Source: Longimicrobiales bacterium
Lineage (GTDB): Bacteria; Gemmatimonadota; Gemmatimonadetes; Longimicrobiales; Gaopeijiaceae
DNA length: 64,000 nt
Direction of reading: 5' to 3'
Assembly: GCA_965204735.1 (NCBI GenBank)
Contig: OZ242008.1
Coordinates: 2,208,001 to 2,272,000, forward strand
Part shown: one piece after another, positions 23,465-40,181 of the stretch
Layout of the letters: each line of letters opens with the position of its first letter
Numbering within the stretch: the stretch's first letter is position 1
Notes under the pieces: generated by a model
Told to the model about the DNA's origin: nothing
The model's database searches: none
The model's input: only the letters and a program-made list of their open reading frames with translations
Made by a program: the position numbers and the translations under genes

Positions 23465-24300
23465 AGCGGCGCGGTGGGCCGGGGGCGGCGCTTGCTGCGG
23501 CAGGCGGGCGGGCGCGTCGCCGGCGCGGTGGGCCGGGAGCGGCACTTGCTGCGGCGGGAGTCGCCGTGGTCGCGGCGGCGGGACCGGCCGAGGCCCAGTG
23601 GAGCACGACAGAGGTTCATTACCAGGGGGGCAGCGCCCTGCGCGATCACCCCGTGAGCCCGACGGGGTTCCAGCACATCCTGACCTTCCAGCATGCCAGC
23701 GGGTGGAGCCGCGGCGAGAACTTCTTCTTCGTGGACATGAGCTGCTGCGAGGGCGCGGGGATCGCGAACCGTGACATCTACGGCGAGTGGTACACCTACC
23801 TGAGCGCGGTCGCCTTCTCCGAAGGAGCGATCCGGAGCGTCGGGCCGATCGGCGGCGTCAACTGGGGCGCCCAGGCCAAGGTGCTCAAGTTCACGCCGGG
23901 AGTGCGGCTGGCCATGAACCTGCCCGGCTTCGCGTTCGCCAACATCGACTACACGTTCGTGGTCGACCGGAGCGCCGGGCTGGAGGACGGCGGGGCGCCC
24001 AAGACCGGCAACAGCCACATCGTGGACTTCAACTGGGCGTTGCCCTTCGATGTCGGCGGCGCGTCGTTCTCCTTGGAGGGCCACGGAGAGTGGCAGAGCG
24101 GCCGGGACGTGGAGACCGGCGAGCGCGCGCCGTACTGGGTGCTGCTCCAGCCTCAGCTTCGATGGGACGTGGGCAAGTCCGTGTCGGGAAGCGAGGGGAG
24201 GATCTTCGTGGGCACCGAGTTCCACGTCTGGCTGAACAAGTACGGCGCCGAGGACGCCGACGAAGTGATCCCCCAGCTGCTGGCGGTGTTCAGGTTCTGA
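23461..24300 (+). CDS. Tsx-like nucleoside-specific outer-membrane channel (DUF5020-like)
   Basis: Signal ending AEA-Q; ILTFQHASGW..GENFFFVD, IYGEWY, LQPQLRWDVG, VGTEFHVWLNKYG; terminal FRF. Confidence 0.8.
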   Translation: MKRRGGPGAALAAAGGRARRRRGGPGAALAAAGVAVVAAAGPAEAQWSTTEVHYQGGSALRDHPVSPTGFQHILTFQHASGWSRGENFFFVDMSCCEGAGIANRDIYGEWYTYLSAVAFSEGAIRSVGPIGGVNWGAQAKVLKFTPGVRLAMNLPGFAFANIDYTFVVDRSAGLEDGGAPKTGNSHIVDFNWALPFDVGGASFSLEGHGEWQSGRDVETGERAPYWVLLQPQLRWDVGKSVSGSEGRIFVGTEFHVWLNKYGAEDADEVIPQLLAVFRF

Positions 24301-24355
24301 CCCCGTCCCTTGTCGACTCCAGCACAGGCTCCAGTGTCTGCTGTGCTAGGCTCGG

Positions 24356-27300
24356 CTAGTCAAAGGCGATCCTGCCGACGAGTCCGACGCGGCGTTCCGG
24401 GGGCTGGAGTCCGTCGGCCGCCTGCTCGCCGAAGAAGTCCATCACCAGGCGGAGGCCGGGGGCCTGCTGCTCGGCGGTCTCGCCGCCCAGCATCGCCCAC
24501 TGGGTCCCCACGTTCAGGCGGTAGCCGGCCGCGCCCTCGCGGCTCCAGCGACCGAACGGCTTGACCTGGCCGCCGCCGGGCAGCAGAACGCCGTAGCCCA
24601 CCTGCATCGCCAGGCGGGACGGCGTCCAGCCTCGTGCGTTCTGGGGCGCTCCGAAGCCGTGGGCGGACGGGAAGCCGTGGGCCGGCACGGCGCCGGGGCT
24701 CGGGGGACCGCCTTGACCGGTGGCGCCGCCGTAGCCGGCTTGGTCGCCGCTGGCGGGCACGCCGCTGCCGGGCTGCGCCGACGGGCCCAGGCCCGGCACG
24801 CCCGCGCTCCGCCACACGTCGTCGCCGCCCTGCCACAACGTCTGCGCGCCGCCCGAGGCATTGCCCCACGACGGCTCCAGCGAGAACGACAGCCCGCCGT
24901 CTTCGCGGCCGGGCTGGATACGCAGCGCCACTGCCGCGCCCCAATCCTTGAAGTTCCGGTCCTGGTGGATCAGCAGCATCCGGCCACGGGCGTCCAGGCT
25001 CAACCCGCTGCCCGCGTGCGTGAAGCCCAGCTCGGCGCCCGCCTCGGCGCCCATCCCCGTCTCCGCGTCGCCCCGATCGTAGCGACCGCCCACCTCGATG
25101 CGCGTGCGCATGGCCACGCCGCCGCTCGTCCACTGCCCGCCCAGCTCGGGCGCCAGCCGCACACGCTGCGCGTCGGCCGTCACCGCCGCCACGTGCACGT
25201 CCGACGCGTCCGTCATCATCCGCACCGCGAAAGCGTCGGCCTTCAGCGCCAAGCCGCCCACCAGCTTCTGGCGCACGCCCAGCGCGCCCATCCGCATCCG
25301 CAGGTCGGCGTCGTAGGTCGGACCCTGCTCGCCCACGTTGGCGGCACCCATTCCCGCACCCGCCAAGCCCCATATCCCGAAGCCGCCCTGCGACGACCAG
25401 CTCAGGTAGGGGTAGAGGCTGGTCAGGTGAGCCTTCGTCTTGCCCGCGCCGTTGATCCCGCTCTCGTAGTTCGCCGCCACGTCGCTGCGCGAGCCGGCCA
25501 CGCCCATCAAGAAGCCCGAGCCGAAGCGGTAGTCCAGACCCACGTACGCCGAGCGGGTGCGGCCGTCCATGGCGAAGTCGTCTTCGGGACGGCCCTCGAA
25601 TTCGCCCACGTTGGCCTGGCCCCACAGCGTCCAGCCGGCCTGGGAGGCCGCCTGCGCCGGGGATGCGTCGGGCGAGCCGCTGGCGGCATCGGCGTCGGCG
25701 CCGCCCTGGCCGTCGGGCGAGCCGCCACCGAAGGAGAGCTGGAACGAGCTCCGGGAGCGGAGGTCGCGGCCTGTCAGCGGGCTGAATGCGACGCCGCCGC
25801 GGGTGCGCTCGGCGCGGCCCGCATCCTCTTCCCGCTGGCCCTGGTACGAGCCGCCCAAGCCGAGGGTGCCGCTCGGAGCGCCGCCCAAGCCCGTCGCGCC
25901 GTCGCCGAAGAAGATGGCGGCCAAGTCCAGCGTCCCGCTCGGGATGCCGCCGGGTCCCGACCCGGTGCCCGGATGCGTGATCTGGAACCCGAGCAGGCCC
26001 GTTGCGTCCCGCACCAGCGACTCGAGTCCGCAACGGCCGCCCGAGACGCCCCCGCCCAAGCCCGCGCCGCCTTCGTCCGGGCCAGCGTGGGCCGATGCCG
26101 TCCTGGCGTGGGCCGACTCGCCCTGGCCTTGGTCCGCACCGCCTTGGCCCGAACCGCCATGGCCCGAGGCCGAGGCGCCCTGGCCCGACTTGCCCTGGCC
26201 CTGGTCCGCACCGGCTGGGCCTGCGGCTGCGCCACCAGCCGCGCCACCGGCTCCGAACGCACGGACCGAGGCCGTGCCGCTGGACACGCCGCCCGCGCCA
26301 CGGCCGCCGCCAAACGCGACGCAGCTCAGCGAGCGCCCGCCCAGCTGCACGTGCGAACGGCCCAGCGAACCCGACGACTCCAACCCCAACCGACCGCCGA
26401 TCGCGTCCACCGTCTCCGTGCCCAGCGACCGTCCGAACGCCGCCAGCGTCAGCTTCAACGCACGCGCCCGATCCGAACGCGACGCCGACACCGTCACGCT
26501 CGCCTGCTGCGTCGCCGTCAAGCCGCCCGCGTCCGTCGCCGTCACCGTCACCGTCGCCGCGCCGATCGCCTGCGGCGCCACCGACAACCGCCCCGCGCCC
26601 GACACCGACGCCGCCGCCACGTCCGGCGACGACGACACCACCACGTAGCTCAGCGCGTCGCCGTCCGGGTCACGGAAGTACTCGCCCAGACCCACCTCCC
26701 ACGGCGCGCCGCCCACCTCCAGCACCGGCGGCGACAGCGAGCCCACCGCCTCCGGCCCCTCGTTCACGTCCAGCAGCGTCACCACGACCGCCGCCTCCGC
26801 CGTCAGACCGCCCGCGTCCGTCACCCGCACCGTCAGCGCGAACTCCGGCGGACCGTCCTCGTAGTTCTCGCCGGCGCCTACGTAGCGCACCTGCCCGCTC
26901 GCGCCGTCCACCTGGAAGCGGCCCGCGTCGCCCTGCGCCAAGCTGTACGTCAGCGCGTCGTCGCGGTCCGGGTCCGTCGCCTCGACCCGTCCCAGCTCCC
27001 GAGGCCCGCGCACGTTCTCCGCCAGCTCGAACGCATATGCGGAGTCCGCGAACGCGGGCGCCTCGTTCACGTCCAGCAGCACCACCTTCACCTTCGCCAC
27101 CGCCGCCAGTCCCGCCCGGTCCGTCGCCACCACCTCGAACTCCCAGCCCTCTGGACCCGTCTCCGCGTCCTCGCCAGCGCCCACGTACCGCACCACGCCG
27201 CTCGACTCGCCCACGTCGAACAGCGCCGCGCCCGCGCCGCTCAAGCTGTAGCGCAGCGTGTCGCCAGCGTCCACGTCCGTCGCCTCGACCGCGCCGAGCT

Positions 27301-30300
27301 CGACCGGGCCCGCCACGTGCTCCGCCAACTCCCACTCCCAGATCGGCTCCACGAACACCGGGCCCTCGTTCCGGTCCTCGAGTGTCACCACCACACGCGC
27401 CCGCGCTGTGAGGCCGCCTCGGTCCGTCGCCGTCATTTCCAGCTCCCAGCTGCCCGGACCCGTCTCCGCATCCTCGCCGGACCCCACGTACCGCACCGCA
27501 CCGCTCGTCGCGTTCACCTTGAACCGCTCGGCGTCGCCCGCCGTCAGCGCGTACGACAGCCAGTCGCCGCCGTCCGGGTCCGTCGCCCGCACCTCGCCCA
27601 GCAGCAGCGGACCACGAGCGTTCTCCGCCAGATCGAAGGCGTACGCAGAGTCGGCGAACGCTGGCCCCTCGTTCACGTTCGTCAGCGCCACCGCCACGAC
27701 CGCCCGCGCGCTCGAACCCGCCAGGTCCGTCGCCGTCACCGCCAGCTCCCACGACTTCGGTCCCGCGCCCTCGTAGTCCTCGCCCGTCCCCACGTACCGC
27801 ACCTCGCCCGTCGCGCCGTCCACTTCGAAGCGGTCGGCGTCGCCCGACGCCAGCCGGTACGTCAGCGTGTCCCCCTCGTCCAGGTCCACCGCCTCCGCCA
27901 CGCCCAGCGCCAGCGGCCCGGCAGCGTTCTCCGCCATCGCGAAGGCGTAGCGCTCGGCCGTGAACACCGGCGCGTCGTTCACGTTCACCAGCCGCACCGT
28001 CACCGTCGCGTCGCCCGTCCGCTCTCCGTCGTCCGCCGTCGCGCGCACGATCATCACGAACTCCGAACGCGACTCCGCGTCCTCGCCCGTCCCCACGTAC
28101 CGCACCTCGCCGGTGCGAGCGTCGACCTCGAAGAGACCCTCGTCGCCCGCCGCCAGAGAGTACGTCACCTCGCCGCCGAAGGGGTCCGTCGCGCTCACCG
28201 TCCCCACCACCACCGGCCCCGACTCGTCCTCCGTCAGCTTGAACTCGTACTCCGCGCGACCGAACACCGGGTCCGTGCCTCCAGCCCCGTTCACCTGGTG
28301 CTCTTCGACGTTCTCCACCGCGTGGCCGCTCAAGTCCAGCGCCGCCGCCGTCGTGCCGCCCGCGATCCGCAGCGCGCCGCCTGCCGCCGTCAGCGCGTCG
28401 GCAGCGATGCTGATCCCGTCCTCGTCCCGGTCCGCAGGCTGCACCACGTACTCGAACACCAGCACCGGCGTGCCCGAGCCCGACACGTAGCTCGCGTGCC
28501 GCACGGCCGTTCCGATCTCGATCGCCAATCGCACGGGAGCGGTCGCAGCCGACATGTGGCCCGCCTGCTGCGGCGCCCCCGCCACCTCCACCGGTCGGCT
28601 GAACGTCACCGCCACCCGGATCACGCTGCGCGGACCGTACAGCCCGTTCGCGCCCGGCGTGCTCGTCACCGTCATCCCCACCACCGCCGGAACCGCCTCG
28701 ACCGTGCCGTCCACCTTGTCGTTCGCAGCCGCCGCGATCGCGTGGCTGCCCAACGCCAGAACCGCCGGACGAACCCCGTCCGCCGTGTTCACGATCGTCG
28801 CGCCGTTCAGCGTCAGCGCCGCAGCAGCCACGCCCACGCCGTCGGCGTCCGCGTCCACGCCGCCCGTGCCGCTGCCGCCACTGCCCGCGCCCTGCACGCG
28901 GTACGCGAACGACAGCGTCGCCGTGCCGCTGCCGCTGGCGTAGCTCGCCTGACGCGTCGCCGTGCCCACCGTCAGCGCCAGCTGCGGCGCGCCCGTCACC
29001 GTCACCGCACGGTCGAACGTCACCTGCACCTCGATCCGCTCGCCCAGGCCGTACGTGTCGCCGCTCTCCGGCGTGCTCGACACTGCGACGCCCGTCGCCG
29101 ACGCGCCCGCCAGCGTGCCGTCCACCTTGTGGCCCGCAGCAGCGCTCAACGCATGGCTGCCCAGTCCCAGAGCCGCTGCAGTCGTGCCGTTGCGGGCGTC
29201 AGCGATCGTCCCGCTGTTCAGCGCCAGCGCACTCGTGCCCACCTCGATCCCGTCGGTGTCGGCGTCCGCCTGCACCACCGTGTACCGGAACGTCAGCGTG
29301 TGCGTGCCCGTACCGCTCGCGTAGTCCGCCTGCCGCGTCTGCGCGCCCACCGTCAGCGCCACCTGCGGCGTGCCCGTCACGCTCACGCGACGGTTGAACG
29401 TCACCTGCACCTCGATCCGCTCGCCCCGACCGTACGTCGTCGCCACCGCCGGCGAACTCGTCAGCGACACGCCGCTCACCGACGCCGCCGTGAACGTCCC
29501 GCCCGCAACCTTGTGGCCCGAGCTGTTGCTCACCGCATGGGCGCCCAGCCCCAGAACGGCGTCCACCGTGCCGTTCGCCACGTCGATCGTCCCGCCGTTC
29601 AGCGCCAGCGCGCTCGCGCCGATGCTCAGCCCGTCGGCGTCCGCGTCCGCCGTCACCACCACGTACCGGAACACCAGCGACGCCGTGCCCGTCCCGCTCG
29701 CGTAGCTCGCCTGCTTCGTCACGGTCCCGATCGTCAGCGCCAGCTGCGGCGTGCCCGTCACGTCCACACCCTTGTTGAACGTCACCGTCGCGACCACCGT
29801 GTCGCCACGCTCGAACGTGTCGCCGATCGGCGGCGACGCGATCGACACGCCGCTCACCCCTGGCGGTCCCTGGGCGCCGTCCACGCGATGGGCCGCGTCG
29901 TTCGATATCGCGTGGCTGCCCAGCCCCAGGCTCGCTGCCGTCGTGCCGTCGCGGGCGTCGGCAATCGCGCCGCCGTTCAGCCCCAGTGCGCTCGCGCCGA
30001 TGCTGAGCCCGTTCGCGTCCGCGTCCCCAGCCACCACCTCGTACCGGAACGTCAGCTGCTTGCCGGCGGTCGCCGAGACGTACGCCGCTTGGCGGGTCTG
30101 CGAACCGATCGTCAGCGCCAGCTGCGGCGCGCCCGTCACCGTCACGTTGCGGTCGAACGTCACCTCGACCTCGATCTGCTCGCTCAACCCGTACGTGCCG
30201 CCGCCCGCCGGGCTGCTCGTGATCGACACCTCGCTCACCGACGACGCCGTGAACGTCCCGCCCGCGACGCGGCGCGCGCCGTCGTTGCCGATCGCGTGGT

Positions 30301-33300
30301 GCGCCAAGCTCAGCAGGGCGTCCGTCGTTCCGCCCGCCACGTCGATCGTCCCGCCGTTCAGCGCCAACGCGCTCGCGCCCACGCTCAACCCGTCCGTGTC
30401 CGCGTCCGCCTGCACCACCACGTACCGGAACACCAGCGCCGTCGTCCCCGTCCCCGATGCGTAGCCCGCCTGCCGCGTCTGCGAACCAATCGACAACGCC
30501 AGCTGCGGCGTCCCCGTCACGTCCACCGCCTTGTTGAACGTCACCGTCGCAACCACCGTGTCGCCCCGCTCGAACGTGGCGCCCACCGGCGGCGCAGCCA
30601 CCGACAGCCCCACCACCCCCGGCGGACCCAAGCTGCCATTCACCTTGTGCGACGCGTCGTTCGTCACCGCGCTCGCGCCCAGCCCCAGCGCCGCAGCCGC
30701 AGCGCCCGGACGCACGTCCGCGATCGTGCCGCCGTTCAGCACGAGCGCGCTCGCGCCGATGCTGATTCCGTCGGTGTCCGCGTCCGCCGGACGGACCGCG
30801 TAGGCAAACACCAGCGTGTCCGCCTTGCTGGAAGCGGCCACGTAGCTCGCCTGCCGCGTCTGCGTCCCGATCGTCAGCGCCAGCCGCGGCGAGCCCGTCA
30901 CCGCCACCGGTCGCCCGAACGCCACCTTCACCTCGATCTGCTCGCCCAGCTGGTACGTGCTCGCGCTCGCCGGGGTGCTCGAGATCGTCATCGCAGTCAC
31001 CGCCGGCGTCGTGAACGTGCCGCCCGCAACCTTGTGGCCCGCGCTGTTCGTCACCGCGCTCGCGCCCAACCCCAGCGTCGCGTCCAGCGTCCCACCCGCG
31101 ACCCGGATCGTCCCGCCGTTCAGCGCCAACGCGCTCGCGCCGATGCTCAACCCGTCCGCGTCCGCGTCGCCGCTCGCCACCACGTACCGGAACACCAGCG
31201 TGTCCGTACCCGTCCCGCTCGCGTACGCCGCCTGCCTGGTCGCGCTCCCGATCGTCAGCGCCAGACGCGGCACGCCCGTCACGTCCACCGACCGGTTGAA
31301 CACCAGCGACACCTCGATCGTCTCGCCCCGCTCGAAGGTGTCGCCCACCGTCGGCGCACTGATCGACAGCCCGGTCACCCCCGGCGGCCCCCGGCTGCCG
31401 TCCACCTTGTGCGCCGCCGCGTTCGCAATCGCGTTGCTCCCCAGTCCCAGGCCCGCCGCCGTCGTGCCGTCGCGCGCGTCGGCGATCGTCCCGCCGTTCA
31501 GCGCCAACGCGCTCGCACCGATGCTGATCCCCGTCGAGTCCTCGTCCGCCGCCACCACCGTGTAGCCGAACACCAGCGTCGCCGTCCCGCTCCCGCTCGC
31601 GTACGACGCCTGCCGCGTCTGACTCCCGATCCCCAAAGCCAGCTGCGGCCCGCCCGTCACCGTCACCGGGCGCGTGAACCCAACCTCGACCTCGATCACC
31701 TCCGTTCGTCCGTAGATGCTGTCGCTCGACGGAGCACTCGAAATCGTCACCCCGCTCACCGCCGCAGCCGTGAACGTCCCGCCCGCAACCTTGTAGTTCC
31801 CGTTGTTGGTGACGTAGTGATCGCGCAGGCTCACCACCGCGTCCGTCGTACCGCCCGACACCCGGATCGTCCCGCCGTTCAGCGCCAACGCGCTCGTGCC
31901 GATGCTGATCCCGTCCGCGTCCACGTCCGCTGTCACCACCACGTACCGGAACGCCAGCGTGTCCGTGCCCGTGCCAGCAGCGTAGCTCGCCTGCTTCGTC
32001 GCGCTCCCGATCCCCAGCGCCAGCTGCGGCGTACCCGTCACCGCCACCGCCTTGTTGAACGCGACCTTCACCTCGATCGTCTCGCCACGCTCGAACGTGT
32101 CGCCCACATGAGGCGAGCCGATCGACAGCGCACTCACACCCGGCGGTCCGAGCGCGCCGTCCACCTTATGCGACGCCGCGTTCGCGATCGCGCTGGATCC
32201 CAGTCCCAGGCTTGCCGCCGTCGAACCGTCCCGCGCGTCGTTGATCGTGCCGCTGTTCAGAGCCAACGCGCTCGCGCCGACGCTGACGCCGTCGCTGTCC
32301 GCGTCCGCAGCCGCCACCTCGTAGCCGAACGTCAGCGTCTTCGTCCCCGTCCCGCTCGCGTACTCCGCCTGTCGCGTCACCGCGCCCACCGTCAGCGCCA
32401 GCTGCGGCGTGCCCGTCACGTTCACCGGCCGCGCGAATGTCACCTCGACCTCGATCTCCTCGCCCAGACCGTACGTGTCCCCGCTCGACGGAGCACTCGA
32501 GATCGTCACCCCGCTCACCGACGACGCCGTGAACGTCCCGCCCGCCACCTTGTGCCCCGTGCTGTTCGTCACCGCGTGCGTGCTCAGCCCCAAGGTCGCG
32601 TCCAGCGTCCCGCCCGACAGCCGGATCGTCCCGCTGTTCAGCGCCAGCGCGCTCGCACCGATGCTCAACCCGTCCGCGTCCACGTCCGCCGTCACCACCG
32701 TGTACTGGAACACCAGCGCCGTCGTGCCCGTGCCGCTCGCGTACGACGCCTGCCGCGTCTGCGTACCGATCCCCAGCGCCAGCTGCGGCGTCCCCGTCAC
32801 GTCCACCGGCCGGTTGAACGTCACCGTCGCCGCAATCACGTCGCCCCGCTCGAACGTGTCGCCCACCGGCGGCGACGCGACGACCAACCCCGTCACCCCC
32901 GGCGGTCCCTGCGCGCCGTCCACCTTATGCGCCGCGGCGTTCGATATCGCGTAGCTCCCCAGGCCCAGGCCCGCCGCCATCGTCGTGTCGCGAGCGTCCG
33001 AGATCGTGCCGCCGTTCAGCGCCAATGCGCTCGCGCCGATGCTGATCCCGTTCGCGTCCGCGTCCGCCGCCGCCACCACGTAGCCGAACGTCAGCGTCTT
33101 CGTACCCGTCCCGCTCGCGTACTCCGCCTGCCGCGTCTGCGAACCAATCGTCAGCGCCACCCGCGGCGTGTCCGTCACCATCACCCGCCGGTTGAACGTC
33201 ACCTCGACCTCGATCTGCTCCGTCCGGCCGTACGTGCTGTCGCTCGCCGGAGCGCTCGTGATCGACACGCCCGCAACCGTCGCCGCCGTGAACGTCCCGC

Positions 33301-36300
33301 CGTTCACCACCAGGAAGTTGCTGAACGCCTGGTGCTCCAAGCTCAGCAGGGCGTCCGTCGTTCCCCCCGCCACGTCGATCGTCCCCCCGTTCAGCGTCAA
33401 CGCGCTCGCGCCCACGCTCAACCCGTCCGCGTCCACGTCCGCAGCCACCACCACGTACCGGAACACCAGCGACGTCGTCCCCGTGCCCGACGCGTACGCC
33501 GCCTGCCGCGTCTGCGCGCCTATCCCCAGCGCCAGCTGCGGCGTCCCCGTCACGTCCACCGACTTGTTGAACCGCACCGTCGCAACCACCGTGTCGCCGC
33601 GCTCGAACGTCGTGCCCGTCGGCGGCGACGCCACCGTCAGGCCCGTCACGCCCGGCGGTCCCAGCCCGCCGTTCACCTTGTGCGCCGCAGCGTTCGTCAC
33701 CGCGCTCGACCCCAGCCCCAGCGCAGCAGCAGCAGCGCCCGGCCGCACATCGGCGATCGCACCGCCGTTCAACGTCAACGCGCTCGCGCCGATGCTGAGC
33801 CCGTCCGCGTCCGCGTCCGAAGGACGAACCGCGTACCCGAACACCAGCGTGTCCACCTTGCTCGAAGCCGAATCGTAGACCGCCTGACGAGTGACCGTCC
33901 CGATCGTCAGCGCCAGCCGCGGCGTGCCCGTCACCGCCACCGGTCGCCCGAACGCCACCTTCACCTCGATCTGCTCGCCCAACTGGTACGTCTGACCGCT
34001 CGCCGGAGCGCTCGACACCGTCACCGCAGTCACTGCCGGCGTCGTGAACGTACTGCCAGACACCTGGTGGCCGCCACTGTTCGTCACCGCGCTCGCGCCC
34101 AGCCCCAACGTCGCGTCCAGCGTCCCGCCAGCCAGACGGATCGTCCCGCCGCTCAACGTCAGCGCGCCCGCTCCGATGCTCAATCCGTCCGCGTCCGCGT
34201 CGCCGCTCGCCACCACGTACTGGAACAGCAGCCCCGTCGTGCCCGTGCCGCTCGCGTAGCTCGCCTGCCTCGTCGCTGAACCGATCGTCAGCGCGAGCCG
34301 CGGCGTGCCCGTCACGTCCACCGCGCGGTTGAACTCCAGCTCGACCGCGATCGTCTCGCCACGCTCGAACACGTCGCCCACCACAGGAGAACTGATCGTC
34401 AGCGCATTCACCCCCGGCGGTCCCAGGTTGCCGTCCACCTTGTGCGCAGCAGCGTTCGATATCGCGTGCGTGCCCAAGCCCAGGCTCGCGTTCGTCGTGC
34501 CGCCCGCGATCCGGATCGCGCCGCCGTTCAGCGCCAAAGCGCTCGCACCGATGCTGATCCCCGTCGAATCCGCGTCCGCAGCCACCACCGTGTACGCGAA
34601 CCTCAACGTCCGCGTGCCCGTACCCCCCGCGTAATACGCGAACCTGCTCACGCTCCCGACGGTGATCAACACGTATGGCGTCCCGAGAGTTGTCGCCCCC
34701 GGCGTGCCCGTCACGTCCACCGAACGCTCGAACTCGACCTCCACCTCGATCGCCTCCGTACGTCCGTACGTGCTGTCGCTCGCCGGCGCACTCGTGATCG
34801 ACACGCCGCTCACCACCGGCGCCACCTCCTTCGTCCCGTCCACCTGGTACGCCACCGCGTCCGCGAAGTTCCACGGCGCCAACGTCAGCCGAGCGTCCGT
34901 CGTCGTGCCCGTCGCACGGATCGTCGCGCCGCCCGGCAGCGTCAACGCGCTCGCACCGATGCTGATCCCCGTCGAGTCCGCGTCCGCCGCAACCACCGTG
35001 TAGCAGAACACCAAGATGACGCCGCCCCCTGTCGTGCCGCACAGCGCAGCGCTCCGCGTCTGCGAACCGATCCCCAGCGCCAAACTCGGCGTCCCCGTCG
35101 CCGTGACGCCCGTGTTGAACCCGACCCCCACGCGAATCAGGTCGCCCAGACCGTACACGCTGTCCGTGCTCGCGTAGTTGATCCCGGCGAGCAGCGTCGC
35201 CGACATGAAGAACGCGCTCGTCACGTACGGAACGTCGCCCGCCACCTTGTGCGCCCCAGCATTCGCGATCGCATGGCTCCCCAACCCCAAACTCGCCGCC
35301 GTCGAGCCGTCCCGAGCGTCCACGATCGTTCCGCTGCCCTGCAACGTCAGCGCGCTCGACCCGACGCCGATCCCGTCCCCGTCCGCGTCCGACGCCGCCA
35401 CCACGTACCGGAACTCCAGCGTCTTCGTGCCGCTCCCGCTCGCATAGGTCGCCTGACGCGTCGAGTCGCCAATCGCCAGCGCCAGCTGCGGGACCGGGAG
35501 CGTCACCGTCACCGGCCGCACGAACGACACCTCCACCTCGATCGTGTCGCCCTGCACGTACGTGGCGTCCGCCGCCGGAGCGCTCGTGATCGCCAACCCG
35601 CTCGGCGACGACGCCGTGAACGTCGCGCCCGACACCTTGTGGCCCGCGCTGTTCGTGACCGCGCTCGCGCCCAGCCCCAAGACCGCGTCCGTCGTCGTGC
35701 CCATGCGTCGGATCGTACCGCCGTTCAGCACCAGCGCGTTCGCGCCGATGCTGGCCCCGTCCGCGTCCGCGTCCGCCTGCACCACCGTGTAGCTGAACGT
35801 CAGCGTCGCCGTGCCGCTGCCGCTCGCGTAGCCCGCCGACCTCGTGGCCGCGCCAAGCCACAACCGCACCTGCGGCGTGCCCGTCACCGCCACCGCACGG
35901 TTGAACGTCACCGTCACGACTATCGCGTCGCCCCGCTCGAACGTGTCGCCCGTCGGCGGCGAACCCATCGACACCCCCGTCACCCCCGGCGGTCCCTGCG
36001 CGCCGTCCACCTTGTGCGCCGCAGCATTCGCGATCACGTTCGTCCCCAACCCCAAGTTCGCGGCCGCCGTGCCGCCCGCGATCCGGACCGTCCCGCCGTT
36101 CAGCGCCAATGCGCTCGCGCCGATGCTGACCCCCGTCGTGTCCCTGTCCGTCGCCGCAACCGTGTAGCGGAACCTCAACGAGCGCGTTCCGGTGCCCGAA
36201 GAGTAGTCCGCCTGCCGCGTCTGCGTCCCGATCCCCAGCGCCACCTGCGGCGTTCCCGTCGCGTCCACCGGGCGGTCGAAGTCGACCTTGACCTCGATCG

Positions 36301-39238
36301 TGTCGCCTGTCCCGTACGTCGAGTCGGCGCCCGCGTCGCTGCTGATCGACACGCCGCTCACGTTCGGCGCCGCCTCCTGGGCGCCGTCAACCTGGAAAGC
36401 CATGTCGTTCGTGACCTCGTATCCGGCCAACGACACGTTCGCGTCCGTCGTCGTCCCCTGCCGCCGAATGTAGGCCCCCGACCCGGCAGGGAACGTCAGC
36501 GCGGTCGCGCCGATGCTGATCCCCGTCGAGTCCCTGTCCGCCGCCACGACCGTATGGCAGAAAATCGCGTATCTGACGGTCTGGCCGCACAGCGGAGCCT
36601 GCCGCGTCTGCGTCCCGATCCCCAGCGCCAGCTGCGCCTGCGTCGCCGTCGTCGACGCAATCCTAACGTTCGTGTTGAACTCAACGGCCACCCGAATCTC
36701 GTCCCCAAGCCCGAACACGCTGTCCGTGCCCGCCTGGAAGGTCTGTGTCCACTGCGCGTTCACGAAAAACATGTCCGTCACGTAGGGCACGTCGCCCGTC
36801 ACCTTGTGCCCCGCCGCGTTCGAGATCGCGTTCGAACCCAACCCCAAGTTCGCGGCCGTCGTGCCGCCCGCGATCCGGATCGTCCCGCCGTTCAGCGCCA
36901 ACGCGCTCGCGCCGATGCTCACCCCCGTCGTGTCCATGTCCGCCACGACCACTGTATAGCGGAACCTCAATGACTTGGTGCCCGTGCCCGCCGCGTACTC
37001 CGCCTGCCGCGTCAGCGTGTCGACCCCCAGCGCCACACGCGGCGTTCCCGTCACGTCCACCGGACGGTCGAAGTCGACCTTGACCTCGATCACGTTCCCT
37101 TCGGCGTACGCGCTGTCAGCGCCCGGGTCGCTGCTGATCGTCACGCCGCTGACGTTCGGCGCCACCTCCACCGTGCCGTCAACCTGGTAGGCCACATTGT
37201 TCGTGAACGTGTGGTCAGCCAGCGACACGTTCGCGTCCGTCGTCGTCCCCTGCCGCCGAATGTAGGCCCCCGACCCGGCAGGAAACGTCAGCGCGTTCGC
37301 GCCGATGCTGATCCCCGTCGAATCCCTGTCCGCCGCCACGACCGTATAGCAGAAGAACGCAAACCTGGGGTTCTGGCCGCACAGCGGGGCCTGCCGCGTC
37401 TGCGTCCCGATCCCCAGCGCCAGTTGCGCCTGCGTCGCCGTCGTCGTCGCAATACGAACGTTCGTGTTGAACCCAACGATCACGCGAACCACATCCCCCG
37501 ATCCGAACACGCTGTCCGTGCCGGCATGGAATATCTGCACCCCCTGCGGGTTCGCGATAAAGATCGTCGTCACGTAGGGCACGTCGCCCGTCACCCTGTG
37601 CCCCGCCGCGTTCGAGATCGCGTGGCCGCCCAAACCAAGGTTCGCGTTCGCCGATCCGCCCTTGAGCTCGATCGTCCCGCCGTTCAGCGCCAACGCGCTC
37701 GCGCCGATGCTGATGCCGTCCGCGTCCGCGTCCGCCACGACCACTGTATAGCGAAACCGCAATGAATTGGTGCCCGTGCCCGCCGCGTAGCCCGCCTGCC
37801 GCGTCTGCGTCCCGATCCCCAGCGCCACCTGCGGCGTTCCCGTCACGTCCACCGGACGGTCGAAGTCGACCTTGACCTCGATCACGTTCCCTTCCGCGTA
37901 CGCGCTGTCAGAGCCCGGATCGCTCGCAATCGACACGCCGCTCACGTTCGGCGCCACCTCCTTCGTGCCGTCCACCTTGAAAGCAGCATTGTCCGTGTTG
38001 TCGTGCGCCGCCAGCGACAGGATCGCGTTCGTCGACGTGCCCTGCCGGCGGATCGCGCCCCCGGGTATCGTCAGCGCGTTCGCGCCGATGCTGATCCCGG
38101 TCGAATCCCTGTCCGCCGCCACGACCGTGTAGTTGAAGTACAGCGAGTGGGCGGTAAACGCGTAGAAGGTCGCGCTTCTCGTGTTCGCCCCGATGGTCAA
38201 GGCCAGCCGCGGCCACTGAGTGTGCCAGCTGATCGGCCTGTCGAACGTCACCTTCACCCTGATGACGTCTTCCAGCCCGAAGGTGCTGTCCGCCGCAGCC
38301 TGCGTCATGACAGCGCCTTGTGCGGTGATGTATTCCACGGCGGATACGACCGGCGCCGTCACCTTGGTGCCGTCCACCTTGAAGGCCACATTGTTCGTGA
38401 CCTGGTGGTCAGCCAGCGACAGGTCGGCGTTCGTCGTCGTCCCCGCGGCAACGACCCGGGCTCCGCCAGGCAGCGTCAGCGCGTTCGCGCCGATGCTCAA
38501 CCCGTCCGAGTCGCTGTCCGCCGCCACGACCGTGTAGCAGAAGATCAAGAAGGACGCCACTGAGTTGCACAGCGGCGCACTCCGCGTCTGCGACCCGATG
38601 TTCAGCGCCAGCTGCGGCGTTCCCGAGCCGCTCACGTCCCTGCTGAATCTGACGCCCACCCTGATCCGGTCGCCCACCCCGTAGACGCTGTCGGCCTGTT
38701 CGAGGTTCGCTAGGAGGATCTGGACTCCGCGGGTCGGATGAAGGAACCAAACGGACACCACGGCGGGAACGTCGCCCTGCACCTTGTGGGCCGTCGCATT
38801 CGAGATTGCATGGGTGCCCAGCCCCAGGTTCGCGGCCGTCGCGCCGCCCGCGATCTGGATCGTACCGCTGTTGAGTGCCAGCGCGCTCGCGCCGATGCTG
38901 ATCCCGTCCGCATCGACGTCCGTGGTCGCTACCGTGTAGCGGAAAGTCAGCGTGCTCGTGCCCGTCCCGCTTGCGTAATTCGCCTGCTGCGTCGCCGCGC
39001 CGATCGTCAGCGCCAGCTGCGGCGTGCCCGTCACGTCCACCGACTGGTCGAAACGAACTTCGACCCCGATCACGTCGGTCGCCGCGTACGTCGAGTCGAC
39101 GCCCGCGTTGCTGCTGATCGACACGCCGCTCACGTTCGGCGCCTGGCCGCTCGCGGCGACCGGCAACCCGGCGGCAACCAGCCCGGCGACCACCAGCGCC
39201 AGGCCGAGAGCCGAAAGAAGCCTTCGCACTACCCACAT
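24356..39238 (-). CDS. Giant repetitive surface protein/adhesin A (~4960 aa): signal peptide, 28 Ig-like repeats, 5 cadherin-like domains, 1 Ig-like domain, autotransporter-like beta-barrel
   Basis: Uninterrupted ORF. ATG 39238 has AGGTGG SD and signal peptide MWVVRRLLSALGLALVVAGLVAAGLPVAASG-Q. Repeat consensus VTGTPQLALTIG..TRQASYASGTGT..L.F.Y.V...DAD.DG.SIGASALALNGGTI. Cadherin motifs PVF, ATDPD, DVNE. C-terminal amphipathic strands. Upstream in-frame ATGs exist (39331, 39388, 39421). Confidence 0.9.
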   Translation of the reverse strand: MWVVRRLLSALGLALVVAGLVAAGLPVAASGQAPNVSGVSISSNAGVDSTYAATDVIGVEVRFDQSVDVTGTPQLALTIGAATQQANYASGTGTSTLTFRYTVATTDVDADGISIGASALALNSGTIQIAGGATAANLGLGTHAISNATAHKVQGDVPAVVSVWFLHPTRGVQILLANLEQADSVYGVGDRIRVGVRFSRDVSGSGTPQLALNIGSQTRSAPLCNSVASFLIFCYTVVAADSDSDGLSIGANALTLPGGARVVAAGTTTNADLSLADHQVTNNVAFKVDGTKVTAPVVSAVEYITAQGAVMTQAAADSTFGLEDVIRVKVTFDRPISWHTQWPRLALTIGANTRSATFYAFTAHSLYFNYTVVAADRDSTGISIGANALTIPGGAIRRQGTSTNAILSLAAHDNTDNAAFKVDGTKEVAPNVSGVSIASDPGSDSAYAEGNVIEVKVDFDRPVDVTGTPQVALGIGTQTRQAGYAAGTGTNSLRFRYTVVVADADADGISIGASALALNGGTIELKGGSANANLGLGGHAISNAAGHRVTGDVPYVTTIFIANPQGVQIFHAGTDSVFGSGDVVRVIVGFNTNVRIATTTATQAQLALGIGTQTRQAPLCGQNPRFAFFCYTVVAADRDSTGISIGANALTFPAGSGAYIRRQGTTTDANVSLADHTFTNNVAYQVDGTVEVAPNVSGVTISSDPGADSAYAEGNVIEVKVDFDRPVDVTGTPRVALGVDTLTRQAEYAAGTGTKSLRFRYTVVVADMDTTGVSIGASALALNGGTIRIAGGTTAANLGLGSNAISNAAGHKVTGDVPYVTDMFFVNAQWTQTFQAGTDSVFGLGDEIRVAVEFNTNVRIASTTATQAQLALGIGTQTRQAPLCGQTVRYAIFCHTVVAADRDSTGISIGATALTFPAGSGAYIRRQGTTTDANVSLAGYEVTNDMAFQVDGAQEAAPNVSGVSISSDAGADSTYGTGDTIEVKVDFDRPVDATGTPQVALGIGTQTRQADYSSGTGTRSLRFRYTVAATDRDTTGVSIGASALALNGGTVRIAGGTAAANLGLGTNVIANAAAHKVDGAQGPPGVTGVSMGSPPTGDTFERGDAIVVTVTFNRAVAVTGTPQVRLWLGAATRSAGYASGSGTATLTFSYTVVQADADADGASIGANALVLNGGTIRRMGTTTDAVLGLGASAVTNSAGHKVSGATFTASSPSGLAITSAPAADATYVQGDTIEVEVSFVRPVTVTLPVPQLALAIGDSTRQATYASGSGTKTLEFRYVVAASDADGDGIGVGSSALTLQGSGTIVDARDGSTAASLGLGSHAIANAGAHKVAGDVPYVTSAFFMSATLLAGINYASTDSVYGLGDLIRVGVGFNTGVTATGTPSLALGIGSQTRSAALCGTTGGGVILVFCYTVVAADADSTGISIGASALTLPGGATIRATGTTTDARLTLAPWNFADAVAYQVDGTKEVAPVVSGVSITSAPASDSTYGRTEAIEVEVEFERSVDVTGTPGATTLGTPYVLITVGSVSRFAYYAGGTGTRTLRFAYTVVAADADSTGISIGASALALNGGAIRIAGGTTNASLGLGTHAISNAAAHKVDGNLGPPGVNALTISSPVVGDVFERGETIAVELEFNRAVDVTGTPRLALTIGSATRQASYASGTGTTGLLFQYVVASGDADADGLSIGAGALTLSGGTIRLAGGTLDATLGLGASAVTNSGGHQVSGSTFTTPAVTAVTVSSAPASGQTYQLGEQIEVKVAFGRPVAVTGTPRLALTIGTVTRQAVYDSASSKVDTLVFGYAVRPSDADADGLSIGASALTLNGGAIADVRPGAAAAALGLGSSAVTNAAAHKVNGGLGPPGVTGLTVASPPTGTTFERGDTVVATVRFNKSVDVTGTPQLALGIGAQTRQAAYASGTGTTSLVFRYVVVAADVDADGLSVGASALTLNGGTIDVAGGTTDALLSLEHQAFSNFLVVNGGTFTAATVAGVSITSAPASDSTYGRTEQIEVEVTFNRRVMVTDTPRVALTIGSQTRQAEYASGTGTKTLTFGYVVAAADADANGISIGASALALNGGTISDARDTTMAAGLGLGSYAISNAAAHKVDGAQGPPGVTGLVVASPPVGDTFERGDVIAATVTFNRPVDVTGTPQLALGIGTQTRQASYASGTGTTALVFQYTVVTADVDADGLSIGASALALNSGTIRLSGGTLDATLGLSTHAVTNSTGHKVAGGTFTASSVSGVTISSAPSSGDTYGLGEEIEVEVTFARPVNVTGTPQLALTVGAVTRQAEYASGTGTKTLTFGYEVAAADADSDGVSVGASALALNSGTINDARDGSTAASLGLGSSAIANAASHKVDGALGPPGVSALSIGSPHVGDTFERGETIEVKVAFNKAVAVTGTPQLALGIGSATKQASYAAGTGTDTLAFRYVVVTADVDADGISIGTSALALNGGTIRVSGGTTDAVVSLRDHYVTNNGNYKVAGGTFTAAAVSGVTISSAPSSDSIYGRTEVIEVEVGFTRPVTVTGGPQLALGIGSQTRQASYASGSGTATLVFGYTVVAADEDSTGISIGASALALNGGTIADARDGTTAAGLGLGSNAIANAAAHKVDGSRGPPGVTGLSISAPTVGDTFERGETIEVSLVFNRSVDVTGVPRLALTIGSATRQAAYASGTGTDTLVFRYVVASGDADADGLSIGASALALNGGTIRVAGGTLDATLGLGASAVTNSAGHKVAGGTFTTPAVTAMTISSTPASASTYQLGEQIEVKVAFGRPVAVTGSPRLALTIGTQTRQASYVAASSKADTLVFAYAVRPADADTDGISIGASALVLNGGTIADVRPGAAAAALGLGASAVTNDASHKVNGSLGPPGVVGLSVAAPPVGATFERGDTVVATVTFNKAVDVTGTPQLALSIGSQTRQAGYASGTGTTALVFRYVVVQADADTDGLSVGASALALNGGTIDVAGGTTDALLSLAHHAIGNDGARRVAGGTFTASSVSEVSITSSPAGGGTYGLSEQIEVEVTFDRNVTVTGAPQLALTIGSQTRQAAYVSATAGKQLTFRYEVVAGDADANGLSIGASALGLNGGAIADARDGTTAASLGLGSHAISNDAAHRVDGAQGPPGVSGVSIASPPIGDTFERGDTVVATVTFNKGVDVTGTPQLALTIGTVTKQASYASGTGTASLVFRYVVVTADADADGLSIGASALALNGGTIDVANGTVDAVLGLGAHAVSNSSGHKVAGGTFTAASVSGVSLTSSPAVATTYGRGERIEVQVTFNRRVSVTGTPQVALTVGAQTRQADYASGTGTHTLTFRYTVVQADADTDGIEVGTSALALNSGTIADARNGTTAAALGLGSHALSAAAGHKVDGTLAGASATGVAVSSTPESGDTYGLGERIEVQVTFDRAVTVTGAPQLALTVGTATRQASYASGSGTATLSFAYRVQGAGSGGSGTGGVDADADGVGVAAAALTLNGATIVNTADGVRPAVLALGSHAIAAAANDKVDGTVEAVPAVVGMTVTSTPGANGLYGPRSVIRVAVTFSRPVEVAGAPQQAGHMSAATAPVRLAIEIGTAVRHASYVSGSGTPVLVFEYVVQPADRDEDGISIAADALTAAGGALRIAGGTTAAALDLSGHAVENVEEHQVNGAGGTDPVFGRAEYEFKLTEDESGPVVVGTVSATDPFGGEVTYSLAAGDEGLFEVDARTGEVRYVGTGEDAESRSEFVMIVRATADDGERTGDATVTVRLVNVNDAPVFTAERYAFAMAENAAGPLALGVAEAVDLDEGDTLTYRLASGDADRFEVDGATGEVRYVGTGEDYEGAGPKSWELAVTATDLAGSSARAVVAVALTNVNEGPAFADSAYAFDLAENARGPLLLGEVRATDPDGGDWLSYALTAGDAERFKVNATSGAVRYVGSGEDAETGPGSWELEMTATDRGGLTARARVVVTLEDRNEGPVFVEPIWEWELAEHVAGPVELGAVEATDVDAGDTLRYSLSGAGAALFDVGESSGVVRYVGAGEDAETGPEGWEFEVVATDRAGLAAVAKVKVVLLDVNEAPAFADSAYAFELAENVRGPRELGRVEATDPDRDDALTYSLAQGDAGRFQVDGASGQVRYVGAGENYEDGPPEFALTVRVTDAGGLTAEAAVVVTLLDVNEGPEAVGSLSPPVLEVGGAPWEVGLGEYFRDPDGDALSYVVVSSSPDVAAASVSGAGRLSVAPQAIGAATVTVTATDAGGLTATQQASVTVSASRSDRARALKLTLAAFGRSLGTETVDAIGGRLGLESSGSLGRSHVQLGGRSLSCVAFGGGRGAGGVSSGTASVRAFGAGGAAGGAAAGPAGADQGQGKSGQGASASGHGGSGQGGADQGQGESAHARTASAHAGPDEGGAGLGGGVSGGRCGLESLVRDATGLLGFQITHPGTGSGPGGIPSGTLDLAAIFFGDGATGLGGAPSGTLGLGGSYQGQREEDAGRAERTRGGVAFSPLTGRDLRSRSSFQLSFGGGSPDGQGGADADAASGSPDASPAQAASQAGWTLWGQANVGEFEGRPEDDFAMDGRTRSAYVGLDYRFGSGFLMGVAGSRSDVAANYESGINGAGKTKAHLTSLYPYLSWSSQGGFGIWGLAGAGMGAANVGEQGPTYDADLRMRMGALGVRQKLVGGLALKADAFAVRMMTDASDVHVAAVTADAQRVRLAPELGGQWTSGGVAMRTRIEVGGRYDRGDAETGMGAEAGAELGFTHAGSGLSLDARGRMLLIHQDRNFKDWGAAVALRIQPGREDGGLSFSLEPSWGNASGGAQTLWQGGDDVWRSAGVPGLGPSAQPGSGVPASGDQAGYGGATGQGGPPSPGAVPAHGFPSAHGFGAPQNARGWTPSRLAMQVGYGVLLPGGGQVKPFGRWSREGAAGYRLNVGTQWAMLGGETAEQQAPGLRLVMDFFGEQAADGLQPPERRVGLVGRIAFD
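28277..39142 (-). repeat. Array of 28 ~125-aa Ig-like repeats in adhesin A
   Basis: Counted by hand from the translation; PPGV..FERG and xxxVSGV..TYG types alternate. Confidence 0.85.
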
Positions 39239-39294
39239 GGCACGCCACCTGCATCCAGCTTTCGTCCGAGATGGCGAATACTTATTATGGCGAA

Positions 39295-39315
39295 GGGGGG
39301 GGGGGGGGGGGGGGG
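39295..39315. repeat. G21/C21 homopolymer tract upstream of adhesin A (candidate phase-variation tract)
   Basis: 21 consecutive G on the + strand; on the coding strand it is followed by TTCGC-CATAAT (-10-like, 39284-39289). Confidence 0.9.
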
Positions 39316-39433
39316 CGAAATGGAAGCTCATCTTGGCCAAGCTCCGGGAAGGTGGGCGAACGCCGAAGGACAGCACCGTTGGCGGCATGTATCGGTCGGT
39401 CGAATATAGCAGGTTGGTCATCTCCACTCCACG

Positions 39434-39534
39434 CCTTGGGTCGAAGTCATTTGGCGAAGAGGCACTTCCATCGCGGCACCAGCCCCCATGCGGGCCATCC
39501 CGCCACCGGCAAAGAACTCGCAGAAGCTGAACAC
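39434..39534 (-). pseudogene. Truncated, doubly frameshifted N-terminal fragment of a DNA (cytosine-5)-methyltransferase
   Basis: Removing one G and one A from homopolymer runs gives VFSFCEFFAGGGMARMGLVPRWKCLFANDFDPR (C5-MTase motifs I-II). Confidence 0.75.
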
Positions 39535-39557
39535 CCGGGGACTCGTCTTGGGCGTCG

Positions 39558-40073
39558 CTACCGTGGCGACCCTTTGGGCGAAGCAGAGCCTTCCTCCGAT
39601 TTCCACAGTGGAAAAGCGCCTGCTTCTGGATCCCCAGGAAAGAACAGACCCTTTTCGCGATCTGCTCGTTCAGCCTTCTGCCAAGCGTCCAGCAGATCAT
39701 CCCCTCCCCCTTCCGGGGAAGACGGGGCGACACGCGTCCGCTCGGACAGCACCCCGCCGTTGTACGAGCGAAGCAGCTCTTCATGAGCCGCCAAGGTCAA
39801 CTCCATAAAGACACGCGCCCGCTCGGACAGCACGCCGTCGTTGTACGAGCGAAGCAGGTCTTCATGAGCCGCTGCCAGATCTGCGAGATCCTCTGCGCTG
39901 ACCCCCTCGACGGCCTGATCCTCAACGGCCTGGTCCGGCATGGGGGCGTCGCCCCCGCATGCGAGGACCGCGCCGCTGGCTATGAGAACGAGGGCCATGA
40001 CGGACCGCGCCACCACGCGCCCGCCGACCCGAGCGAACGCCCCGTAACAGGCAGCCTTCTTCGACCTGGACAT
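39558..40073 (-). CDS. Hypothetical lipoprotein with an internal 27-aa duplication
   Basis: AAGGAGG RBS, ATG 40073, lipobox AVLAC, repeat AAHE(D/E)LLRSYN(D/G)GVLSER(A/T)RV twice (81-bp period). Confidence 0.7.
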   Translation of the reverse strand: MSRSKKAACYGAFARVGGRVVARSVMALVLIASGAVLACGGDAPMPDQAVEDQAVEGVSAEDLADLAAAHEDLLRSYNDGVLSERARVFMELTLAAHEELLRSYNGGVLSERTRVAPSSPEGGGDDLLDAWQKAERADREKGLFFPGDPEAGAFPLWKSEEGSASPKGSPR

Positions 40074-40181
40074 AAGACAACCTCCTTTGCGGAAAACTGC
40101 CTTTGGGGGACCCGAGCGGCCCCCAGCGATGCCGACAGGCTGGCCCCGCCACGGCGGCCGGCCTCGGTCGGTGTCGACCAC

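Follow-up and report, generated by a model that had tools for sequence, protein, structure and literature searches.

The stretch analyzed here, referred to as the window, comprises 64,000 nucleotides of a Longimicrobiales bacterium (GenBank assembly GCA_965204735.1, contig OZ242008.1, positions 2,208,001 to 2,272,000 of the forward strand). It contains an unbroken open reading frame (ORF) of 5,142 codons, ORF A (24356..39784, minus strand, as are all features of ORF A given below), whose product is read as a signal peptide, a stalk of immunoglobulin (Ig)-like repeats, cadherin-like repeats, an Ig domain, a helix, a linker, and an 18-strand barrel. With a probability of roughly 0.8, we take the end of ORF A to be one enlarged exporting and anchoring barrel, modeled as a helix and twelve autotransporter-related strands followed by six more. 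The minus-strand translation of 24356-25633, the C-terminus of ORF A, consists of 425 residues and a stop; an earlier note on this DNA had counted about 18 strands in it instead of 12.

Predicted fold of the C-terminal domain

We modeled the last 800 residues of ORF A with AlphaFold2, using 90 homologues, and assigned strands by DSSP. The predicted fold consisted of an Ig domain, a long helix (model residues 94-123), and 18 strands within model residues 375-799, as the earlier count had it. The last six coincided with the segments then quoted (24872-24895, 24590-24616, 24542-24565, 24497-24523, 24422-24454, and 24362-24394). The mean predicted local distance difference test score (pLDDT) was 69.8 and the predicted template modeling score (pTM) 0.68. 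Blocks of 10 residues scored 76-91 over the strands and 58 in the turn preceding strand 17, and the 275 of 800 residues with a pLDDT below 50 were found in the linker and loop 7. Since the pTM reached 0.68 despite these residues, the ordered parts are predicted to form one rigid body.

Strands 1 to 12 occupy 24917..25636, as placed by DSSP, by comparison of a truncated model with NalP, and by PF03797. Strand 13, the first extra strand, spans 24863..24895 (DSSP, amphipathic pattern, and sequence) and is followed by loop 7 (24617..24862), which connects it to strand 14 and has a conserved W-G-x3-S-G-x3-L-W start and a variable Gly/Pro-rich remainder. Strands 14 to 18 (24362..24616) end in a terminal aromatic (Phe, then Asp and the stop). 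The helix (26390..26479; pLDDT 91-97) aligns, in the full and the truncated model alike, with the helix region of NalP, EstA, and AIDA-I and appears to be the counterpart of the autotransporter pore helix.

As a control, the same construct was modeled with the same 90 homologues but cut after strand 12. The cut model matched NalP with a Z of 29.0 and a root mean square deviation (rmsd) of 2.1 Å over 260 residues, reaching the last residue of NalP, as opposed to 20.3 and 3.3 Å for the full model. From the cut to the full model, the values changed from 28.6 and 2.2 Å to 20.2 and 3.4 Å for Hbp, from 27.5 and 2.4 Å to 19.8 and 3.7 Å for AIDA-I, from 26.4 and 2.5 Å to 18.1 and 3.5 Å for EstA, and from 24.2 and 2.0 Å to 16.9 and 3.5 Å for BrkA. 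With Foldseek, BrkA matched the cut model at an E value of 6.7e-9 (template modeling score, 0.73) and the full model at 1.4e-4 (0.62). The top match of the full model was EspP trapped on BAM (8bnz; Z 21.9, 3.0 Å, 268 residues, model residues 90-616), which the cut model fitted at 23.4 and 3.9 Å, and a FadL homologue (3dwo) went from 13.2 and 5.0 Å to 16.1 and 3.9 Å. Thus, the matches to closed barrels worsen and the fits to open EspP and the FadL homologue improve, which argues that strands 1 to 12 are opened when strands 13 to 18 are present. The earlier idea of an enlarged, autotransporter-derived barrel is supported by a cut model that closes like NalP and a full model that is opened.

When 48,161 structure representatives were searched, the best matches of the full model were again autotransporters. 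Loose alignments across the whole strand range were obtained for MOMP (model residues 374-798), VDAC1 (139-799), and FyuA (122-800), at rmsd values of 5.6-7.0 Å. No known family of larger barrels, the alternative the earlier note had raised, matched better than autotransporters in the structure searches.

In a six-frame search, PF03797 matched strands 1 to 4 (E value, 4.5e-5), with a total of 28.2 bits against a cut-off of 26, and hmmscan with Pfam and NCBIfam found no family on the 425-residue domain or on its paralogue B. The PF03797 cut-off was reached by 15 of the 61 family proteins scanned, mostly over profile positions 1-95; in P0018, the match extended to position 243 of 255. A sequence search of the PDB returned nothing with an E value below 0.06 for the query or below 0.2 for a 26-row profile, and the isolated extension (strands 13 to 18) had no Pfam match. 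On the model comparisons, strands 1 to 12 are descended from an autotransporter barrel. The homology and the pore helix of type Va autotransporters are both present in the modeled helix and strands 1 to 12, and the 12-strand barrel and short linker of that type are not.

The six additional strands are of the membrane type, with hydrophobic and polar residues alternating as in strands 1 to 12. We examined 369 aligned barrels (length, 350-470 residues, with an aromatic in the last four), among them homologues with 24-40% identity to the query, and took the best 8-residue window of each strand. On one face, strands 13 to 18 were 47-89% large hydrophobic and 0-1% charged. By the same measure, strands 1 to 12 were 43-77% large hydrophobic and 0-24% charged, so that the extra strands fall within or above the range of the first twelve. 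The inward faces of strands 14, 16, and 17 were 39-55% charged. Since this set was selected on its aromatic end, it cannot test the terminal aromatic. For that we turned to 424 distinct barrels of 300-520 residues, kept from 479 after those of other lengths or with no located strand 1 were dropped; in 377 of them, one of the final three residues, on strand 18, was aromatic. The end of strand 12 was mostly Leu, Ile, or Val before Asp-Pro, with Phe in 32 of the 369 barrels, and the turn from strand 12 to strand 13 was about 7 residues long in the model.

A second copy of the domain, in paralogue B (50906-52189, minus strand), also has 18 segments and ends an open frame of 13,587 codons that extends beyond the window. 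Compared with ORF A, its strands 1 to 12 are 91% identical (220/241) and its extension 62% (114/185). Within the extension, conservation covers the strands and the beginning of loop 7, and the remainder of loop 7 has diverged, which bears out the claim that the six segments are conserved while the loops between them are not; taken alone, this comparison is weak evidence of conservation, as the two copies are close.

Two features of the model point to a filled lumen. In the family consensus, the start of loop 7 has near-invariant residues (P629, W631, G632, and W642), and closed autotransporters align the end of their last strand to model residue 641, inside this conserved start. In addition, the pLDDT of a conserved piece of the linker (residues 331-350) rose from 36-44 in the truncated model to 62-68 in the full model. 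Because both the alignment at residue 641 and the rise in the linker point to a plug, the lumen is predicted to be filled, with the conserved beginning of loop 7 likely folded inside it.

Proposed ring closure and alternative readings

We infer from the model that all 18 strands lie in one ring, not round, with its seam between strands 1 and 18. Several observations weigh against this closure. Covariation among the 369 barrels (about 134 effective at 80%) scored -0.2 for strands 1 and 18, the lowest of the 17 possible partners of strand 1, against a mean of 1.9 (standard deviation, 0.7) for non-adjacent strands; the test is a weak one, with strands 1 and 12 also at background (2.3) and the true neighbours 13-14 (1.2) and 8-9 (1.7) missed. 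The truncated model closes with pLDDT blocks of 92-98, and strand 1 of the full model scores 79-84. Furthermore, known porins with 18 strands give poor fits to the full model (OccD2, Z 10.8 and 6.6 Å; MOMP, Z 10.4 and 6.5 Å), which suggests that the barrel, if closed, is not round and porin-like. A complex prediction of residues 1-533 (the helix and strands 1 to 12) with residues 534-715 (strands 13 to 18) scored 0.00 in both runs; the fold of the partner was uncertain, and the result was not used as evidence.

The confident closure of strands 1 to 12 as a canonical barrel on their own, together with the missing covariation between strands 1 and 18, would also suit an arrangement in which these strands close normally, with the 4-10 additional ones set apart in the membrane as an element of their own, such as a second barrel made from several copies (2x6 or 3x4 strands) that clusters adhesins. 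The extra strands, being amphipathic, would still lie in the membrane, and the barrel of trimeric autotransporters is likewise made of three times four strands (PMC6555100). We consider this arrangement improbable. Strands 1 to 12 are opened in the full model, and the fact that AlphaFold closes a truncated sheet shows little; moreover, one oligomer geometry could hardly be maintained while the number of extra strands varies (4, 6, 8, or 10), and the turn between strands 12 and 13 is short. A closed 12-strand barrel followed by a soluble periplasmic beta domain is less probable still. The chain would be periplasmic after strand 12, and the lack of a Pfam match leaves room for such a domain, but every extra strand has a hydrophobic face with 0-1% charge, the terminal aromatic sits on strand 18, and the full model is not a closed 12-strand barrel. 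This arrangement, which the earlier note had set against its own reading, is absent from the full model.

A further alternative concerns function: the enlarged barrel would be an anchor or channel only, with the passenger exported by BAM, TAM, or another machine and the lumen used as a solute pore or docking site. The linker of 100-250 residues differs from the "short alpha-helical linker" of type Va proteins (PMC3419190), and the charged inward faces of strands 14, 16, and 17 would be consistent with a pore. However, the helix and strands 1 to 12 superimpose on autotransporter translocators, the conserved elements of loop 7 and of the linker resemble plugs, and no gene for a secretion partner was found among the 37 window ORFs scanned with NCBIfam, in which the identified neighbours are housekeeping genes. 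We give this alternative the same low weight as a separate membrane element and prefer the single enlarged translocator.

Two other candidates were rejected. For a double barrel of 10 and 8 strands, no 8- or 10-strand barrel was found among the top 50 rows of the structure searches, a weak argument, as it rests on absence from a list. A read-through artefact was ruled out by the aromatic end and the length of the domain, which from strand 1 to the C-terminus had a median of 372 residues and a 5th-95th percentile range of 351-450 (175 rows, four of them the window's own entries).

Family, passengers, and genomic setting

We evaluated variation in strand number by counting strands by eye in proteins with a length below 350 or above 398 residues; those not listed here had longer loops, were fragments, or contained apparent frameshifts. 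Two strands fewer (16) were counted in five proteins (P0063, P0173, P0144, P0072, and P0167), two more (20) in twelve (P0175, P0111, P0177, P0161, P0162, P0147, P0180, P0251, P0094, P0096, P0260, and P0291), and four more (22) in six (P0076, P0128, P0267, P0084, P0118, and P0178). In BLASTP, query strands 15 to 18 matched P0076 twice in tandem (E values, 3e-4 and 6e-4); in P0178, there was one clear match and one weak one. Judging by these sequences, relatives appear to gain and lose strands in pairs, and such changes fit the rule that bacterial barrels have even strand numbers. Odd strand counts are treated as mostly errors, and 20-strand labels are excluded as rare, in bioRxiv 2026.03.07.710327.

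Some relatives continue beyond the barrel. In P0097 and L030:1-3441, strand 18 is followed by a Pro-rich linker and a SPOR peptidoglycan-binding domain, which suggests a cell-wall tether. In P0092 and P0170, the plug and barrel of a TonB-dependent receptor follow the 18-strand-family barrel in the same chain; this arrangement, seen in two different proteins, would represent either a two-barrel fusion or a lost stop. A SPOR domain or receptor plug after strand 18 places the end of the chain in the periplasm, in accord with an even strand count.

The family is large. Among representatives clustered at 50% identity, 5,782 matched at an E value of 1e-3 or below and 4,574 at 1e-10 or below; we inspected the best 150 of the 5,782, and the weaker ones may include ordinary autotransporters matched through strands 1 to 4. 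In the genome itself, 17 open frames carry the domain and comprise 6.4% of the genome by open-frame length. In addition to these, a large frame has been separated from its barrel: at G000:C1:2771495-2772873, after an open frame of 12,966 codons, the barrel is divided over two frames near strand 2 by a frameshift or an assembly error. A weak PF03797 match (profile positions 88-159) at G000:C1:3300369-3300587, in a 1,124-codon frame outside the 17 paralogues, may be an ordinary autotransporter.

Profile matches were found in 7 of 41 related genomes and in 28 of 201 genomes of the phylum (6 of 99 genera). In one genome of the phylum (G107), the profile match of four genes is divided between positions 8-174 and 176-394, with both parts in one frame and about 25 codons between them; the gap would be an insertion specific to this lineage, midway through the barrel. 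Outside the phylum, a Candidatus Binatia genome had 19 profile matches, and one family member came from a Rhodospirillales metagenome-assembled genome. The taxonomy is thin, with a name assigned to 1 of 20 clusters, and a scan of named genomes with one protein gave 2 loci, one of which was matched weakly and in part, from 238 candidate stretches. No match to the family was found in a plasmid search. DNA of the window is present in four sponge-metagenome runs of one study, in marine-metagenome runs of another, and in runs with coded organism names; the listed runs include no RNA data set. A sponge is the likely habitat of the source bacterium.

Passengers of the family contain Calx-beta, cadherin, Ig, fn3, PKD, LRR, or trypsin domains. 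The suggestion that the enlarged barrel is suited to very large passengers was not supported: the same 18-segment domain ends both ORFs of 13,000 codons and proteins of 728 residues (P0018 and P0020, which have a signal-peptide-like start and a passenger of about 180 residues). Nor was its suitability for disulfide-bonded passengers borne out. Cysteines are rare: after residue 300, ORF A has 10 and the 13,587-codon paralogue 4. The stalk of ORF A has four short-range cysteine pairs, and its linker has one. Passenger size and disulfides were thus rejected as drivers of the extra strands. According to PMC3419190, barrel type does not track passenger size, and a 10,429-residue member has an EstA-type barrel. 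Common to the members are a long linker and a passenger built as a chain of beads. Our best guess is that the benefit would most likely be room for a bulkier secretion intermediate, made of early-folding Ig or cadherin beads, rather than passenger length.

Upstream of the barrel, ORF A continues with the linker between helix and strand 1 (25637..26389), about 250 residues that are mostly low complexity by family consensus and pLDDT; its short conserved elements are a G-G hairpin, which follows the helix, and an S-x-F-x-L strand, which precedes strand 1. Next come the last Ig domain, which adjoins the helix, and five cadherin-like repeats counted by eye (26486..28273 in all; PF00028 and PF17963). 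The passenger stalk (28274..39139) holds, by an estimate from its length, about 29 repeats of about 125 residues. No Pfam or NCBIfam family scored above cut-off on this repeat, at 28274-39139 or at 53400-64000, and some of its N-terminal copies contain a close cysteine pair. A signal-peptide-like stretch with a basic start, a hydrophobic core, and an A-x-A/G end was read by eye at 39146..39238. The true start of ORF A is probably downstream of 39784, at the ATG at 39331 or 39238.

An in-frame run of 21 C (39295-39315, minus strand) lies downstream of the ATG at 39331 and ahead of the signal-like stretch at 39238. Runs of at least 14 C also occur near the 5' ends of several paralogues, at least at G000 24254, 1448582, 1530078, and 1548510, and such runs near ORF starts likely serve as an on/off switch through slippage. 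A short lipoprotein-like reading frame (39558-40181, minus strand) lies upstream of ORF A; its end overlaps the nominal start of ORF A and contains a short direct repeat.

The NCBIfam-matched ORFs of the window were housekeeping genes (dnaK, degP, clpP, clpX, lon, floA, and fatty-acid enzymes) and a TonB-dependent receptor. The genome has an Omp85 gene beside tamB and a second Omp85; PF01103 has three matches in the genome, all outside the barrel of ORF A. Contigs from all four runs examined for coverage, with runs of a share below 0.2 left out, cover 30 of 30 bins of 24200-26800; no single piece spans the region, and paralogues are mixed in.

Possible mechanism and relation to known systems

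The sequence suggests that ORF A is likely a surface adhesin whose barrel exports the repeat stalk and then anchors it. The protein would be exported by Sec via its signal peptide. BamA or TamA would recognize the aromatic end of strand 18 and build the barrel from the C-terminus toward the N-terminus, and the passenger would cross the BamA-substrate hybrid barrel as in type Va, with the helix left in the pore. Such C-to-N strand assembly on BamA through a hybrid barrel is described in PMC13048289. In the model, the six additional strands would then be inserted at the seam between strands 12 and 1, and the extra lumen would be plugged by the start of loop 7 and pieces of the linker, so that the barrel is probably oval and sealed rather than an open pore. 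The enlargement may have arisen, and may still vary, by loss and duplication of strand pairs.

A distinct type V subtype is plausible. The picture can be drawn further, to an undescribed subtype of thousands of clusters in unrelated sponge-associated phyla, with 18 strands grown at the seam and variants of 16, 20, and 22, in which the added strands permanently take the place of BamA and a wider, plugged pore passes folded Ig or cadherin beads. We offer this as a tentative proposal and doubt that it will hold in full.

New here is a type Va-like translocator that, in the model, departs from the 12-strand barrel of its type and is likely a plugged barrel of 18 strands, in a large and unnamed family whose members appear to have 16, 18, 20, or 22 strands. 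Changes in strand number are reportedly rare among outer-membrane barrels (bioRxiv 2026.03.07.710327). A series of 16, 18, 20, and 22 strands in one homologous family would allow a direct test of whether barrel size limits autotransporter export; it could also address to what extent BamA is needed for translocation and in what way hairpin duplication enlarges barrels. Because Pfam fails to detect most of the family, likely symbiont adhesins of a major class would be under-annotated. Surface display of folded cargo might also work better with a wider translocator than with the barrels now in use.

The closest known systems are the type Va autotransporters (NalP 1uyn, Hbp 3aeh, AIDA-I 4mee, EspP, EstA 3kvn, and BrkA 3qq2; PF03797), which share the signal peptide, N-terminal passenger, helix, and C-terminal barrel. 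The helix and strands 1 to 12 of ORF A superimpose on them strand for strand, with Z values of 24-29. In contrast to type Va, the barrel of the ORF A family has six additional strands and takes up about 370 residues from strand 1 to the C-terminus, with the terminal aromatic moved to strand 18; its linker is about 250 residues in ORF A and about 100 or more in compact relatives; and the passengers are made of Ig, cadherin, Calx-beta, fn3, or LRR beads, not of a beta-helix. Type Va barrels are described as 12-stranded (PMC6555100 and PMC3419190); a 14-strand description of the Hap barrel is mentioned in PMC9581022. The "long-type" group 13 barrels of PMC3419190 (AIDA-I and Ag43) were once suspected of extra strands. 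However, 262 of the 303 residues of AIDA-I 4mee align to the 12-strand model at 2.4 Å, which indicates a barrel of ordinary size, separate from the ORF A family. We found no account of an 18-strand autotransporter barrel in the literature covered, which mostly excludes subscription journals.

Strand numbers of 12 for type Va, 16 for Vb and Vd, 12 for Ve, and 8 for Vf are listed in PMC6555100. Types Vd (PlpD and FplA) and Vb (TpsB, FhaC, and CdiB) are thus also type V systems with more than 12 strands, but they have POTRA domains and 16-strand Omp85 barrels, whereas ORF A has a helix and a low-complexity linker instead; Pfam hmmscan gave no match of PF01103 or POTRA on ORF A. FhaC and CdiB fit the full model at Z 12.6-14.6 and 5.3-5.9 Å, worse than the autotransporters. 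For the trimeric type Vc, the YadA anchor had no Pfam match in ORF A or the extension. The 18-strand channels (OccD/OprD, Campylobacter MOMP, and maltoporin) have the same strand count, and MOMP aligns over the whole strand range (374-798), but the fit is weak (Z about 10, 6.5 Å) and these proteins have neither a passenger nor a pore helix. Growth from 16 to 18 strands in channels has been proposed to occur by a loop-to-hairpin change (bioRxiv 2023.06.14.544993), whereas in the ORF A family the strands are appended at the C-terminus.

The nearest likeness to the opened sheet of the model is EspP on BAM (8bnz), a late folding intermediate (PMC13048289), in which an open 12-strand sheet is continued by further strands. 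In that transient state, it is BamA that supplies the continuing strands, whereas in ORF A they are the protein's own C-terminus.

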